The notes under the pieces are model-generated. The model was not told the DNA's origin, did not search any database, and worked only from the letters and a program-made list of their open reading frames with translations. Below are positions 19,520 to 57,326 of a DNA stretch of 64,000 nt, one piece after another. This DNA is from a virus (lineage: Duplodnaviria; Caudoviricetes): positions 95,305 to 159,304 of IMG/VR virus record IMGVR_UViG_3300028797_000101; one strand, written 5' to 3'. The first letter of the stretch is position 1; each line of letters opens with the position of its first letter. A program made the translations under genes and the position numbers.

Positions 19520-19557
19520 ATCTCGATAGCATCATTTCAGATGTTATCGAGATTTTT
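19520..19557 (+). terminator. intrinsic terminator between convergent genes
   Basis: ATCTCGATAGCATC-N6-GATGTTATCGAGAT-TTTT. Confidence 0.7.
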
Positions 19558-20304
19558 ATGTAACTTTTGATACAACATCTTTTCCGCCTTAGGTAACTTT
19601 AGGGCTAATATATCATAATCTATCTGATAAATTTCTGACATTTTCTTCAATTTACTAGTGGTCAATTTAGACTCAGATTCAAGCATCTCGTGGATGAGTA
19701 ATTCTTCAATAGTGTTGTAATTATCAGACATACTGATATCTTTATGTGAGTGATCAACGGAAGGTACAAATGGTTCATGATCTTCCCAATTTGCTTCATA
19801 TAGCGACCCGAATATTGCTTGAAGTGTTACCATCTTTTCCGGAGACAGCTTCAATCTAGGATCTGAGAGATCTTCATATTTAACTTGACCCCAATGCTTG
19901 CCGAGTTGCGCTCCAACTTCCATGCAAAGTGTTCGTCGAATAGAATACTTGACCTCGTTCAATTCTCTCTCAATCATCTCTCCAATCCTAGGCTTGAAGA
20001 ATACAGAAAAGGAAAGATCTGTGCGATAACCTTTGTGAGTTTCATCACCTTGCCATTTATACCACCACCAGCACTCCATAAAATGTGTACAAGCGGATTG
20101 ATACTTATCTTCATATGTAACAGAGGAATTGTTGATGAATGTTTTTGATGCTATGTAGCCGAAGAACGCTTGATTCAATAGAAATATCTGGTCTCTAATA
20201 TCAGTCTGTTGCATTCTCAGTATTTTATTCTGAGGCAATCTGTCATATAATGCAAGTGTTTGTTGTTTGATTGCTTCTGATTTCGATACAGATGAATCTA
20301 TCAC
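19537..20304 (-). CDS. phage sigma-factor-like protein
   Basis: Region-2-like RDQIFLLNQAFFGYIA...VTYEDKYQ...FSVFFKPRIGEMIERE; C-terminal HTH-like segment. Confidence 0.6.
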   Translation of the reverse strand: MIDSSVSKSEAIKQQTLALYDRLPQNKILRMQQTDIRDQIFLLNQAFFGYIASKTFINNSSVTYEDKYQSACTHFMECWWWYKWQGDETHKGYRTDLSFSVFFKPRIGEMIERELNEVKYSIRRTLCMEVGAQLGKHWGQVKYEDLSDPRLKLSPEKMVTLQAIFGSLYEANWEDHEPFVPSVDHSHKDISMSDNYNTIEELLIHEMLESESKLTTSKLKKMSEIYQIDYDILALKLPKAEKMLYQKLHKNLDNI

Positions 20305-20323
20305 TTCTGAACCCCCTACAAAG

Positions 20324-20839
20324 TTAAATAAATTCGTAGATCTTTCCTTTGATCATTTCATGATTTCGTAGCTTTTTAGTGATGGTACCTCTAGATAAAC
20401 CAGTTACATTGCAAACTTGCTGTATAGATGCAAATTGCTCATTTGAATCTACACATCGTATCTTAAGACCTCCATAAGGCGCAGGAGGTTTACGTCTGCC
20501 ATCTTTTATGTTCTGCTTTGCAATCTCAGAAATAGTCTTCCATTCTAAGTTATCCACACAACAGTTAGATTTATCCCCATCTCTGAAAACAATCCAACTA
20601 GGTTCAGAAGGTTCTGTAAGAAACGCGTTAGCTACTAGCTGATGAATAGCAAAGCTCTTAGAACTAAAGTTCACATACAAAAATCCTTTTGCATCGGCTC
20701 TTGGTTGAATAAGCTTCGATTCAACATGCTGTTCAGATCCATCATCAAAACACATCTTGTATCCAGATTTCTTTACATTACCTTTATCAGAAATCAGATA
20801 TCCAACGCATCCATCAATAGGTCGCCAAATCTCATTCAT
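20324..20839 (-). CDS. NUMOD4/HNH-type protein, apparently degenerate active site
   Basis: EIWRPI..Y.ISD.GNVK; IHQLVANAF...VFRDGDKSNCCVDNLEW; NUMOD1-like C-terminus. Confidence 0.75.
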   Translation of the reverse strand: MNEIWRPIDGCVGYLISDKGNVKKSGYKMCFDDGSEQHVESKLIQPRADAKGFLYVNFSSKSFAIHQLVANAFLTEPSEPSWIVFRDGDKSNCCVDNLEWKTISEIAKQNIKDGRRKPPAPYGGLKIRCVDSNEQFASIQQVCNVTGLSRGTITKKLRNHEMIKGKIYEFI

Positions 20840-20892: not shown

Positions 20893-20962
20893 GTAAAAAT
20901 CACCAAATTTCTTACAATCTTGAACGATTTAAGTTGATTACAAATTTGGAATAAGATCGTCT

Positions 20963-21102
20963 AAAATCAAAAATGTAGAAATTTGGACATTTTGTAAATA
21001 AAATCAAAAATGTAGAAAATTGGACATTTTCCAGCTAAATATCAAAATGTAGAAATTTGGACATTTTTGCATAGTGCTACGAAATCACTTTTGTCCAAAT
21101 TT
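20963..21102. repeat. iteron-like repeats, candidate replication origin
   Basis: 3 direct copies of ATCAAAA(A)TGTAGAAA(T/A)TTGGACATTTT plus an inverted TGTCCAAATTT, followed by an AT-rich tract at about 21120-21255. Confidence 0.7.
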
Positions 21103-21258
21103 AACGGTTTTTGCGAACATAATTTAAAAGAAAGTTAATCTTTTTAAATTTAAAAAAATAAATAAAAAAATAACTCCTCACTCAACTCAAAAAAAAATAA
21201 AAGGCAAAAGGCAGTAAAAGGCAATCGTTAAAAATTTTAGCAAAAATAAAAATAGGGC

Positions 21259-21287
21259 TTGACTTTTCGCAATTTATCGCATACAAT
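21259..21287 (+). promoter_or_regulatory. sigma-A-type promoter
   Basis: TTGACT-17-TACAAT with A-rich upstream tract. Confidence 0.75.
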
Positions 21288-21293
21288 AAGTCC

Positions 21294-21500
21294 ATTAACA
21301 CATATCATCGAATGCGGCGTTGATATGAGTTGCCTGGTAGACTTGTGTCAGCCGCATCTGACATATCTACACAGTTCAACGTTAGGACTAATTGTATATG
21401 GCGCCGGTTCGTTCAATTTTATTGAGCGGAAGACCGAGGTCGCAGCTATACAACGAGGTCTGCTGGAGAGAGGGCAATTCATATCAACGCCGCATTCATG
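21294..21500 (+). ncRNA. candidate structured non-coding RNA or leader
   Basis: 25-bp closing stem 21310-21334/21473-21497 (one G-U) with nested hairpins, directly downstream of a promoter. Confidence 0.65.
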
Positions 21501-21531
21501 TTGTACTGAAGTAAGGAGGTGAACTTTACTA

Positions 21532-22431
21532 TTGGATATTCACAGTGCAGAAGCTCATATGGAGAAGGTACTGCAGTATTTAGAGCAGATGCATGACAAC
21601 AATTCATCTCTTTATTCTAAAACACGAGAAAAACTGAAAAATATTAGCAATGATCTTTTTAGAGGATTGAAGCTAGTATCAGAAATCCTTGAGGAAGATT
21701 CACTTGTCGTTGAAGCAGAGTTTGAAGGAACAGATGAATCTATCATATCGTCTGTGAAGTCTATGAAAGAGCAATCTGAAGAGATCTCACAAGTCATTGA
21801 CCGAGTAGATAGTTTTGTTTATTCTCCTCATCCAGAGCCGAAGTTGACATACTCACCCAACAAGCTCAGTGCTAAGAAGAGAAAGCACATTGTTTACACC
21901 TACGGGCAAGTTTTGAAGAAAGTAGCCGGTGCATCAACACCTTACAAGTCTGTCCGAGATTGTGCAGCACTCATCTGGAGATGGTACGACACGAGATTTT
22001 TCTTATCATCACAATCATGTCCTAAGTTTCACTACAATATTCATAACATTCCCGAATGTATCAAATGGATAGTTTTAGCTTACAGCAAACACTTATCTGA
22101 CCATACACTAGATTCCTTCCTTTCTGACTTTGATACTTGGCTGAGCTCGTTATTATATCCGAAATCTGGTAATAATTATGTTTTACCTTACGCAATATTC
22201 AAGATCGGGCGAGAAACAAAGATCTCAGACGTTTCTCAAGCTTCAATCATGATATGGGACATTTTATTCGATCTAGGATATTCTGAACTATCAACTGATG
22301 ACCTCGCAGATGTTAAGCTTCAGTCAGAAACACTCTACAATCTGGCAGTTAAGATTGCACCAGATATTGCTGACAATTACGTGTATTATGAAGAAGATGA
22401 TTCACTTCTCAGATCTTTGGAGGTAAATTAA
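21532..22431 (+). CDS. hypothetical protein, first gene of replication operon
   Basis: AAGGAGGT RBS, TTG start, 299 aa. Confidence 0.75.
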   Translation: MDIHSAEAHMEKVLQYLEQMHDNNSSLYSKTREKLKNISNDLFRGLKLVSEILEEDSLVVEAEFEGTDESIISSVKSMKEQSEEISQVIDRVDSFVYSPHPEPKLTYSPNKLSAKKRKHIVYTYGQVLKKVAGASTPYKSVRDCAALIWRWYDTRFFLSSQSCPKFHYNIHNIPECIKWIVLAYSKHLSDHTLDSFLSDFDTWLSSLLYPKSGNNYVLPYAIFKIGRETKISDVSQASIMIWDILFDLGYSELSTDDLADVKLQSETLYNLAVKIAPDIADNYVYYEEDDSLLRSLEVN

Positions 22432-23733: not shown

Positions 23734-24346
23734 TTGTATCTTTACTGCGCATTGCACAGAACTATTTTGTGATCGGTCTTGTCCTACATTTGTAGAAACA
23801 ACATATCTTCTTGAAAGGAACGGAATAGGTCTAAACAATTCCGTCTTTCAGGCTGAAGATGCATCTGTCTTGAAATCATTGAATGTTCTCGCTAAGTTCC
23901 AGGGATCATTCGGTGCATTTAAGTGTGAAGATACACTTAAGTGGGCAGACCTACTCACATATTGTGCAATATGCCAAAATTGGAAAGGTAGTCAACTTCA
24001 TTGCACTGTATTCAATTTGAAGTATGCGAAATATCTAGACGACCTCAAGAAGAGCTGGTCAGGTCCTGCTCCAGAAAGCTTAGAGCTGACGCAAATCTGG
24101 ATGCAAACTGCAAAGATACTGATTGTGTCTAATTTAGATTATGTAAACTTTGGAGATTTTGAAAGCCAAACTCTTCTGAATACTATACAACTTCGAGCAG
24201 CGGAGAATTTAACTACTATTGTCGTTGTACCTTCGCTAGGAATTGTGACAAAGCCGGGAGGGCTCAATTCATTCCCTATACTCCTCAAAAAGAAGATTGA
24301 TTCATCGCTCTACAAAGAATCAAAGATTGGGGGTGTACAGCGGTGA
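23726..24346 (+). CDS. DnaC/IstB-like helicase loader (degenerate)
   Basis: Cys-rich N-terminus, YLDDLKKSW, KILIVSNLD...LLNTIQLR...TTIVV; precedes helicase; Walker A not obvious. Confidence 0.55.
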   Translation: MRNCIFTAHCTELFCDRSCPTFVETTYLLERNGIGLNNSVFQAEDASVLKSLNVLAKFQGSFGAFKCEDTLKWADLLTYCAICQNWKGSQLHCTVFNLKYAKYLDDLKKSWSGPAPESLELTQIWMQTAKILIVSNLDYVNFGDFESQTLLNTIQLRAAENLTTIVVVPSLGIVTKPGGLNSFPILLKKKIDSSLYKESKIGGVQR

Positions 24347-25710
24347 GTGTTACTTCCATAGAGCTTCAAGTAATTTCAAGAATCTTAACCTCCAAAGATC
24401 CGAAAGACGTGGACACACTTTGTGCCTACGATTTATCATATTTTTCTGTATTCAAACAGCATATGGAATTTATTCTCAACCATAGACAAAGGTATGGAGA
24501 TGTTCCAGATGTTTTTACATTTCAAGCTCAGTTCCCTGACGTCACGTTAGTAAGCGTAACAGAACCTATTCAGTATCTCATAGATGGTCTTAAAGAATAC
24601 AAAAGACAGCTTATCTTGATTGAGACCTTCAACAAGATAAAGGATCTGGGTTCTGGGGACATAAATGATGCATGGGCCTACTTGGAATCACAATGCGAAC
24701 GAGCTGCACAACTTGATTCTACAAAGCCGATGGACATTGTTCATGATTCCAAACAAAGAGCAGATCAAGTTATCGCGTTTAACAAGCAAGCCAGGATACC
24801 AACAGGATTTGCAGAAATTGACAAACTGATGTATGGTGGATTGTCAACAGTAGAAGAATTACTTCTTTTAGTAGCAAGAACTAACACCGGTAAATCTTGG
24901 ATCTGTACAAAGATGATGGAGTCTGCACAAAAACATGGATTCGCAGTGCTTTACTACTCACCAGAAATGCAAGCATCATTTCTTGGTACTCGTTTTGATA
25001 CTTGGAGAACACATACACCAAATAGTCAGATCTTCCGAGGTAACTACACTGAAGAGTATGTAGAATATCTTGATAAACTCAGTCAAGAAGAAACAAGCGC
25101 ATTTATTCTCGAAGATAAAGATGTAGAGGGAGGAGCTGTAAACGTAAAGGCACTTGATAATCTCGTTAAAAAGTACAACGTAAAACTTCTCATCATTGAC
25201 GGTTTGTCTTACATGGATGATCCGCAGAAAGCGCCCACGGATTATCTGAAATACAAAAATATCTGTAATGGTCTATTCAAATTAAGTAAGACTAGAGGAT
25301 GCGCAGTAGTAGTTGCGATGCAGGCAAACAGAGAGACGCAGAACTGCAAGGATGATAAAGGGGAACCTTTTCCAGGTCTGATGCAGGTTGAAGGAAGCGA
25401 CCATCCTGCTAGAATCGCAACTCAGGCTTTCGCTATTCGTCAGATATTTGACAAACATGTGCTTGACATAAGACTTGAGAAATCAAGAAACGCAAACAAT
25501 CAGAAACCAGTTCTTAGTTACGCCTGGGATATCAACACAGGAAACATGCAGTATCTTCCGAATGGTGATGACGGATCCATTACTCCGGCTACTTCAACTC
25601 CTGGCTCTGTTGTCCCTGTAGTTAGCGGAGTTACTACTAATATTAAAAGTTCTGATGATTTCAGTGCTTTGATCGATATGGACGATTCAGATGATGATGT
25701 AGAATTCTAA
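24343..25710 (+). CDS. dnaB: DnaB-family replicative helicase
   Basis: IPTGF.EID, ARTNTGKS, SPEM, LLIIDGLSYM, QANR, LEKSRN. Confidence 0.9.
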   Translation: MSVTSIELQVISRILTSKDPKDVDTLCAYDLSYFSVFKQHMEFILNHRQRYGDVPDVFTFQAQFPDVTLVSVTEPIQYLIDGLKEYKRQLILIETFNKIKDLGSGDINDAWAYLESQCERAAQLDSTKPMDIVHDSKQRADQVIAFNKQARIPTGFAEIDKLMYGGLSTVEELLLLVARTNTGKSWICTKMMESAQKHGFAVLYYSPEMQASFLGTRFDTWRTHTPNSQIFRGNYTEEYVEYLDKLSQEETSAFILEDKDVEGGAVNVKALDNLVKKYNVKLLIIDGLSYMDDPQKAPTDYLKYKNICNGLFKLSKTRGCAVVVAMQANRETQNCKDDKGEPFPGLMQVEGSDHPARIATQAFAIRQIFDKHVLDIRLEKSRNANNQKPVLSYAWDINTGNMQYLPNGDDGSITPATSTPGSVVPVVSGVTTNIKSSDDFSALIDMDDSDDDVEF

Positions 25711-26497: not shown

Positions 26498-26575
26498 AAC
26501 ACTTGTAACAGATAAATAAACAGTTGAATCGTTACTGTTTCATACAAAAATATCAAAGGTACAGGAGGTACGCGT

Positions 26576-30835: not shown

Positions 30836-31241
30836 ATTTAGCTGCTGCTATATTGAGAGTATGCGGTTCAATATTCATCGCTATCGCATGGAAGCTACTG
30901 TAGTTTCCAAGAATCCGGAGAATGGTATTGTCATCGCTTTTGAAACACTTAAGCAGCTTATGAAGTCTGTTGTACCTGAGGACAATTCGTTCTTATTCAG
31001 TAGAATAAAGACGGGCGAACAGGCAGCTCTTAAGAATTCGCTAGAGATGAATAAGATTGCTGTAGCAGTACTGCCAATCGAGATTTTAACTGCAGAAACG
31101 CTATGTAGTTATCTTGCAGGTCGATTGCAAAATGCACTTGATGCGTCTAAACAAGATGCATCTGTCATCAACTTGAAACTCAGAGAAACTAATGATTCTT
31201 ATGCAAGCTGGACTCGTCCAGAAACAGATGAATCGTTATGA
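30801..31241 (+). CDS. QueD/PTPS-like T-fold protein, degenerate
   Basis: HRY.MEATV, GIVIAF..LK, TAETL, LKLRET..SYA; the usual His ligands are not all present. Confidence 0.6.
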   Translation: MLNSVQVTQRIEFSCCYIESMRFNIHRYRMEATVVSKNPENGIVIAFETLKQLMKSVVPEDNSFLFSRIKTGEQAALKNSLEMNKIAVAVLPIEILTAETLCSYLAGRLQNALDASKQDASVINLKLRETNDSYASWTRPETDESL

Positions 31242-57282: not shown

Positions 57283-57326
57283 ATGTCGATTCGTTATAGA
57301 TCTTAACTTACTCTGGAGGAATCACT

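Follow-up and report, generated by a model that had tools for sequence, protein, structure and literature searches.

We analyzed a 64,000-nt stretch of phage DNA (referred to here as the window), taken from a phage genome in IMG/VR that is complete at 159,304 bp and ends in direct terminal repeats; the stretch covers its bases 95305-159304. Between an iteron-like repeat array and the first gene of a replication module, the plus (+) strand of the window carries a structured element (21310-21497) downstream of a host-type promoter. A first-pass annotation had proposed that this promoter produces an undescribed phage non-coding RNA (ncRNA). Our results bear this out: judged by conservation, covariation, strand-specific G-U pairs and the lack of an Rfam match, the element belongs to a conserved, promoter-proximal + strand structured RNA family that is absent from Rfam 15.

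The locus and the fold of the RNA

Upstream of the element, the minus (-) strand carries an HNH/NUMOD4 gene (20324-20839) and, beside it, a gene for a 255-aa protein, the pair spanning 19537-20839. A divergent promoter with a score of 11/12 in our consensus scan (20892-20864, - strand) lies ahead of them. Between this promoter and that of the RNA sit a tract of very high A+T content and three 37-bp direct repeats (20962-21072), which a repeat search revealed as an iteron-like array. The promoter of the RNA, TTGACT-17-TACAAT (21259-21287, +), is of the sigma-70/sigma-A type; the first-pass annotation had already noticed it, and the consensus scan confirmed it with a score of 10/12. On the other side of the element, a ribosome-binding site (21513-21519, +) precedes a 299-aa orphan gene (21532-22431, +; TTG start at 21532) that opens the replication module, followed by a 432-aa orphan, a 206-aa orphan and a DnaB-like helicase gene (24343-25710). 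The replication modules of the relatives (given here by L numbers) additionally contain a Toprim primase. As the divergent promoters, repeats and AT-rich tract are followed by these genes, the locus looks like an origin with its replication module.

Several neighboring features deserve mention. The 299-aa protein belongs to a metagenomic family of 450 clusters at 50% identity, as found by profile search, and has no Pfam or PHROG match. Its AlphaFold model is all-helical (predicted local distance difference test score, pLDDT, 76) and gave no PDB fold match at E <= 0.001, shedding no light on the role of the RNA; the protein is a possible initiator candidate. Iteron-like arrays were also seen 5' of the RNA in L253 (1887-2045), L268 (831-1055), L275 (698-883) and L060 (8504-8700). 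They comprise 3-5 direct repeats at 32-37-bp spacing and differ in sequence from lineage to lineage, as would be expected of sites co-evolving with an initiator or repressor. The HNH/NUMOD4 gene and its ~255-aa neighbor keep their synteny, divergent from the RNA, in the distant relatives L006, L008 and L060. Free-standing homing endonucleases do not usually keep their place in this way, which hints that the HNH/NUMOD4 gene has been domesticated. Finally, the DnaB-like helicase of L008 (7758-9977) is 739 aa long and has a weak Hom_end match, suggesting that it carries an intein.

The + strand between 21300 and 21505 folds with a predicted energy of -91.1 kcal/mol (z -8.84; none of 200 shuffles equalled it), and the - strand with -77.7 kcal/mol. 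The predicted shape is that of a perfect 26-bp stem closing a multi-helix junction. The closing stem, P1, pairs 21310-21335 with 21472-21497; the long and nearly perfect pairing described at first pass was thus retained, while its count was revised from 25 pairs with one G-U to 26, of which 24 are Watson-Crick and two G-U. P1 contains the longest perfect inverted repeat of the 159,304-bp genome (19 nt; the runner-up has 13 nt). The element occurs only once in the genome, and its GC content of 0.48, against 0.40 for the genome, agrees with the earlier impression that it is GC-richer than its surroundings.

Reading from the transcription start, an A/C-rich 5' leader (21298-21309, +) runs up to the 5' arm of P1 (21310-21335, +), whose basal 12 nt are conserved in sequence and whose upper 14 nt co-vary. 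Within this arm lies segment A (21312-21318, +), which can take as partner either the P2 loop or the basal 3' arm. The P2 hairpin follows (21337-21370, +; helices 3 and 4), with changes on both sides in 10 of its 11 pairs. Its apical loop together with the closing G forms segment B (21351-21357, +), which matches the basal 3' arm letter for letter and is the complement of segment A. Next come a conserved junction, ACAGUUCA (21371-21378, +), and the interrupted, variable arm P3 (21392-21453, +), an expansion segment. A conserved purine-rich junction, GCUGGAGAGA (21462-21471, +), then leads into the 3' arm of P1 (21472-21497, +), the basal part of which is segment C and has the same sequence as segment B. 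The two junctions are linked by a short helix, P4 (helix 5), where UUCA of ACAGUUCA pairs with UGGA (21464-21467) and 3 of the 4 pairs are compensatory. After the stem there is a U/G-rich tail (21498-21509, +), weak in the window (5 U in 12). The hairpin and the long interrupted arm, both recognized in the first-pass annotation, were recovered by the minimum free energy and the centroid folds alike.

We compared the region with known RNAs, including the search against Rfam (with 6S RNA) that had been suggested at the outset. ARAGORN found no tRNA. Rfam 15 gave no match in the whole window at the gathering score, and nothing meaningful for the region 21100-21700 at E <= 10, where only chance matches at the level of snoRNAs appeared. 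The first-pass annotation had likewise been unable to match the element to a tRNA or a recognizable riboswitch. An 87-codon frame (21259-21522) overlaps the element; we rejected it as coding, since close relatives differ inside it by indels that are not multiples of three.

Conservation across relatives

To collect relatives, we used the 299-aa protein, its profile search, and DNA patterns. Among large phage contigs from gut and rumen, about 18 lineages were found to have the same kind of element, 5' of a gene of the 299-aa type. One lineage is formed by the window with L004 and L009, which are closest to it (91-93% protein identity). The others are L006, L008, L060 (with the fragment L129), L122, L125, L252, L253, L259, L264, L267, L268, L275, L400, L402 and L403, together with a reduced form in L262. 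Several of these elements lie on contigs of 124-253 kb, and one record name refers to a pig gut metagenome. The order of iteron array, AT-rich tract, promoter and RNA is kept in all lineages examined, and the placement of the replication module after the RNA is shared across lineages. In 10 of 16 lineages, a promoter scoring 10-12/12 was present 13-39 nt 5' of the stem. The 298-aa gene of L008 is separated from the RNA by two unrelated genes; the RNA remains with the iteron/promoter region, and the next gene after it is an amidase, not the 299-aa homologue. Four contigs (L260, L271, L273, which is a 214-kb provirus record, and L277) have the gene without a detectable element.

The reduced form in L262 (1372-1464) consists of a 21-bp stem and a U6 tail around some 50 nt, lacks the loop mimic described below, and scores 18.6 bits. 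Decay of the element, or a minimal design in which just the terminator-like stem is retained, may account for it.

Our searches beyond these contigs were negative. A BLAST search with the region found no match among 50,697 cultured phage genomes, and the 13 relatives compared with Rfam at the gathering score showed no family at the element (one unrelated tRNA was found elsewhere). A pattern scan of 185,579 prokaryote genomes returned none with the long stem among the matches listed, and no link to a host or prophage. The recurrent matches in Lachnospiraceae (L281, L283, L284, L286, L296, L353) were rejected as unrelated, since they lie inside a protein-coding gene conserved in many genomes of this family; in it the loop hexamer happens to fall 21 nt from the 14-nt arm sequence, with no stem. 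Loose DNA patterns in viral contigs were mostly chance among the matches listed, and L028, L033, L081, L088, L174 and L189 were discarded after inspection. A protein alignment of 81 sequences was too diverse to locate loci.

We then built a covariance model, R1, from five relatives, with the window excluded. R1 recovered the window element at 21310-21497 on the + strand with 73.9 bits (E 5e-17), as a single copy in the genome; the - strand scored 31.3 bits. Scores on the + strand exceeded those on the - strand by 40-100 bits. With its filters off, the model also recovered the short forms L060 and L006, which lack the junction motifs. Plain MAFFT misaligned the variable arm, and the interior was aligned by the covariance model instead. 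In the resulting model-fitted alignment of 12 sequences, A10, 95.4% of the cells are paired, against 76.0% in shuffles, these percentages being upper estimates. Changes on both sides occur in 36 of 48 pairs. The covariation score is 0.630, compared with 0.259 for shuffled alignments (0/500 reach it) and 0.07-0.13 for slid partners. The covariation that had been suggested as a check on homologous intergenic regions was thus found.

The pairs of P1 were counted by a separate walk, independent of A10. In 15 sequences, P1 has 24-29 pairs from a common base, with at most one irregularity each. Together they give 355 Watson-Crick and 41 G-U pairs, while 5 positions are mismatched, of which 3 are C-A. 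Pairwise identity averages 0.85 at positions 1-12 and 0.36 at positions 13-26, with pairing retained. The folded species is the + strand, since on the opposite strand all 41 G-U pairs would turn into mismatches and just 3 C-A go the other way; given the promoter, RNA is the natural reading. The early argument that G-U pairs favor RNA over a DNA cruciform was therefore well founded.

The consensus runs from P1 to P2 with its small apical loop, then through ACAG and a UUCC or UUCA junction, P4, P3 and the purine-rich junction back to P1; across relatives, the P4 partner of the junction is GGAA or UGGA. The distal part of P3 (21400-21452) differs from L004 and L009 by many substitutions and indels, though the flanks are ~94-100% identical. 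Despite this strong divergence, P3 retains its rod or helix shape between the three. We considered targeted hypervariation for this patch and set it aside: as pairing is retained, it reads better as a fast-evolving expansion helix. The window shows every feature by which we define the new family, namely the 26-bp P1, its conserved base, a P2 loop complementary to the 5' arm, the sigma-70-type promoter and the iterons.

A loop that copies a strand of the closing stem

The most informative feature of the RNA is absent from the first-pass annotation: a loop that mimics the 3' strand of P1, together with a stem base and U-rich tail that resemble a terminator. In every lineage but the reduced L262, the apical loop of P2 contains 5-9 nt identical to the basal 3' arm. 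Since the loop copies this strand, it is perfectly complementary to positions ~2-9 of the 5' arm. A script detected this complementarity of 5-9 nt in 13 of 15 sequences; that of L275 was identified by eye from the fold, as was the 5-nt CCGCA of L264, for which the script's best match falls outside the loop. The complementarity comprises 7 nt in the window and was seen in three more lineages.

Segments A, B and C vary together through four sequence versions. Most lineages have UGCGG, CCGCA and CCGCA, respectively. The corresponding sequences are UGUGG, CCACA and CCACA in L253, L402 and L403; UGAGG, CCUCA and CCUCA in L267; and GUCGUAG, CUACGAC and CUACAAC in L275. An adjacent A-U pair is replaced by G-C in L122, L125, L252, L259 and others. 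The six arm-loop pairs are 95.3% paired, with 3 of 6 compensatory, and slid controls reach 26-68%. In L268 and L402, the base of P1 contains a mismatch and the loop is still perfectly complementary. Nested folds were also computed for nascent transcripts that end just behind P2 or short of the 3' arm; in those ending behind P2, the arm-loop pairing appeared in 7 of 10 lineages. The predicted duplex energies are -10 to -20 kcal/mol for A:B and -14 to -24 kcal/mol for the basal A:C, with A:B the stronger of the two in L268. By its sequence, the 5' arm is predicted to have two conserved and mutually exclusive partners.

The surroundings of P1 resemble those of an intrinsic terminator. Across 16 lineages, the 12 nt 5' of P1 are 68% A+C and the 12 nt 3' of it 56% U, and the base of P1 is GC-rich in all lineages. 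Runs of at least five U occur within the 12-nt tail in L122, L253, L268, L275, L400, L402 and the short form L262, while in L125 and L264 they extend from the final pairs of the stem into the tail. In L253 and L267, leader and tail lengthen the helix, which reaches 39 bp in L253.

A second sequence motif, A[AT]TCGTTA, bears on how the downstream genes may be expressed. It has 28 copies on the + strand of the genome, mostly 20-50 nt 5' of ribosome-binding sites. Those in the window include 21223-21230, 26527-26534, 31231-31238 and 57289-57296. The first of these, AATCGTTA (21223-21230, +), lies upstream of the host-type promoter, and its reverse complement is absent from the + strand of the whole genome. 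The motif, which resembles the SPO1 late -35 box, CGTTAGA, probably serves as a promoter element specific to the phage and likely to be read by a sigma factor that the phage encodes. In the window, L253, L268 and L275 it precedes the host-type promoter. In 7 lineages the stretch from the RNA to the gene contains the motif or a near variant of it.

Models for the function of the RNA

Our model, which we favor tentatively and at somewhat less than even confidence, is that P1 acts as a promoter-proximal, terminator-like stem with a built-in antiterminator mimic, which would gate the entry of host polymerase into the replication operon and yield a small RNA with closed ends. With family, structure, strand, position and the co-variation of A, B and C as the observed basis, we infer termination, antitermination and the biological output. 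In the model, host RNA polymerase would transcribe the RNA from the near-consensus sigma-70-type promoter beside the iteron/AT-rich, origin-like region. Once P2 has been made, segment B would pair with segment A, so that the A:B pseudoknot forms first during transcription. This pseudoknot would act as an antiterminator, as it holds the nucleotides needed beside the U tail. The upper part of P1 would then offer the arriving 3' arm a toehold from which to displace the loop. If displacement succeeds, the base of P1 and the U tail would form an intrinsic terminator between the early promoter and the replication operon, and termination would free the small RNA. The balance of A:B and A:C would set early read-through into the replication genes, at a ratio that may be fixed or tuned by some factor.

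The strong U tails of L253, L268 and L275 are followed by no promoter-like motif before the gene. As such a motif is likewise missing after the RNA in the window and L006, the replication genes of these five would be reached only by read-through. In the window lineage, with its degenerate U tail and no promoter-like motif downstream, the RNA would mostly be the 5' leader of the replication operon. A further possibility, which we regard as doubtful, is a self-referential riboregulator. Here, the loop that mimics a strand of its own stem would serve in cis as the pseudoknot antiterminator, and the released RNA, its own arm locked in the long stem, could target in trans those nascent copies in which the 5' arm has yet to pair. 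Large gut and rumen phages would thereby gain an RNA-counted timer or copy-number sensor that switches on the replication module at the origin.

Several observations weigh against the terminator/antiterminator model. The window tail has 5 U in 12 and no U run, and termination there would be weak. A simple terminator scan found none, although such a scan is blind to long-range stems. An intrinsic terminator whose stem encloses 75-170 nt of folded RNA would be unusual. The motif between RNA and gene in 7 lineages implies that the genes there may not need read-through. Attenuation does not account for the conserved nucleotides of the junctions, nor for a P1 that stays near-constant at 24-29 bp; both suggest that a protein partner, or a ruler of the RNase III kind, is involved. 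Nor is any ligand or factor known to shift the balance of A:B and A:C. The three-way co-variation cannot separate A:B pairing from a single partner reading both B and C. Lastly, the paired percentages of A10 are inflated because that alignment was fitted to the model.

The constant length of P1 leads directly to an alternative to which we give a small but real chance: host RNase III would cut P1 as a processing stalk, excising a trans-acting core RNA (upper P1, P2 and P3) and maturing the 5' end of the replication mRNA. As the complete 159-kb genome contains no RNase III gene, it is the host enzyme that would act. P1 stays nearly free of mismatches at 24-29 bp in every lineage despite 36% identity in its upper part. 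It amounts to two or more turns of double-stranded RNA (dsRNA), an established substrate size, and the 15 sequences contain the ~20 bp of regular dsRNA expected of a substrate; its constant length suggests a ruler. The junction nucleotides, conserved in the long forms, are as one would find in a functional core RNA. The stalks of rRNA precursors and of T7 early RNA likewise place a long, near-perfect duplex around a functional RNA, but differ from the phage element, in which the basal 12 bp are conserved and mimicked by an inner loop. Excision leaves that conservation and the loop copy of the basal 3' strand unexplained, and it has no need for a U-rich tail or an A/C-rich leader. After cleavage, loop B could re-pair with the freed basal strands. 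RNase III excision is compatible with the terminator reading, and the two may coexist.

It is unlikely, in our view, that firing of the adjacent origin depends on this transcript, whether through transcription that activates the AT-rich unwinding region or through the RNA acting on the initiation complex. The fixed order of iterons, AT-rich tract, promoter and RNA in all lineages examined agrees with such a role, as do the strong divergent promoters on either side of the AT-rich region and the fact that the RNA of L008 stays with the iterons, parted from the 298-aa gene by two genes. There is a precedent in the non-coding PE1-T transcript of the lactococcal phage c2. PMC7150918 (citing Schiemann 2004) reports that this transcript starts at the first early promoter, is situated between two promoters of the origin region and is crucial for replication. 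Like our RNA, it is an ncRNA made from an early promoter within an origin region, has a second promoter after it and comes from a phage of Gram-positive bacteria. The c2 transcript, however, is not unusual in its fold (z -0.17) and has no sequence similarity to the RNA described here; c2 has a genome of 22 kb, and its origin functions without any phage protein. Transcription heads away from the AT-rich tract, so the RNA cannot directly prime replication there, and the phage studied here has its own primase and helicase. In addition, that the iteron region serves as an origin is itself an inference, and the A/B/C mimicry would be left unexplained.

We consider it quite improbable that the RNA is simply a leader, protecting the replication mRNA from 5' exonucleases or serving as an operator for autoregulation by the 299-aa protein. 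5' stem-loops do stabilize mRNAs in Firmicutes, the RNA and the 299-aa gene family co-occur in most contigs, and a gap of 30-50 nt, free of any promoter-like motif, separates the end of the RNA from the start codon in the window, L006, L253, L268 and L275. Against this, the ribosome-binding site lies outside the structure, the gene next to the RNA in L008 is the amidase, four contigs have the gene without the RNA, and the A[AT]TCGTTA-like motif follows the RNA in seven lineages. Moreover, a simple stabilizer requires neither a junction nor a loop mimic. An element acting at the origin as DNA, through a cruciform or a hairpin in one strand (a loading site for primosome or initiator, for instance), with the RNA irrelevant, is very improbable. 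That P1 holds the longest inverted repeat of the genome, adjoining the iterons, would suit it. However, the 41 G-U pairs of P1 are wobbles in DNA and mismatches on the other strand, against 3 C-A; the inner helices co-vary through G-U intermediates; the strand preference of the covariance model amounts to 40-100 bits; and the promoter (10-12/12 in 10/16 lineages) lies directly upstream. To a 6S-like decoy of RNA polymerase, which the first-pass annotation had raised, and to a retron-type msr-msd RNA we give scarcely any weight. A length of ~190 nt with paired ends recalls 6S RNA, and a closing inverted repeat around inner hairpins resembles a retron ncRNA, but neither the region 21100-21700, even at E <= 10, nor the 13 relatives had a meaningful Rfam match. 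The multi-helix junction is no central-bubble rod: the RNA lacks both the bubble and the open-promoter mimic of 6S RNA. A search with RVT_1, to which control genomes responded, found no reverse transcriptase gene in the complete 159-kb genome.

Among known systems, the CI RNA of the phage-plasmid P4 (seqA/seqB/seqC) is the nearest in logic to the terminator/antiterminator model, as it too is a replication-operon leader with three short segments. According to the summary in PMC4825925, the P4 immunity RNA comes from the untranslated leader of the replication-gene operon, one of its segments is complementary to two others, and transcription terminates prematurely. The processed P4 RNA pairs in trans with two complementary sites, whereas here the loop copies one stem strand and competes for the other. 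The two RNAs share no sequence or structure similarity, they differ in the polarity of their three segments and in host type, promoter type and phage lifestyle, and termination in our case is conjectural. The relation to P4 is one of resemblance, not membership, and neither the window nor the 13 relatives matched the C4/P4 CI antisense family in Rfam. C4 RNA is a processed RNA of ~70-80 nt whose loops are complementary to flanking targets; the loop described here is identical to a downstream segment. Terminator/antiterminator attenuators and riboswitch platforms are alike in the exclusive pairings of a GC-rich stem strand, in the U residues that follow, and in their placement between promoter and operon. 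In the phage RNA, unlike in these, the shared strand lies at the extreme 5' end, the stem closes a 100-200-nt RNA, and the competitor is a hairpin loop of 5-9 nt forming a pseudoknot. Nor does the phage RNA have a recognized ligand, tRNA, leader peptide or protein that would act as its sensor. For a riboswitch reading, it offers conserved junction nucleotides and a predicted alternative pairing, but the junction motifs are missing from L006 and L060, no known class matches, and the genes imply no ligand. Of the 10,006 candidate structured RNAs that a 2023 catalogue drew from IMG/VR (PMC10690425), none of them named, the text of the article describes none with this motif, and an anonymous prior listing is possible.

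Few phage structured RNAs have worked-out roles, and none in Rfam 15 matches this family, which spans many large gut and rumen phages and sits at the junction of a likely origin, an early promoter and the replication genes. The three co-varying segments provide an unusually clear signal, so that the model of a loop mimic competing with a terminator strand is directly testable. If the model is true, the RNA would represent a compact design principle for transcription control, reusable in synthetic circuits, and would explain how these phages time their replication. If RNase III excision or origin firing is at work instead, the RNA would still be a new entry point to the control of replication in an uncultured group of phages.

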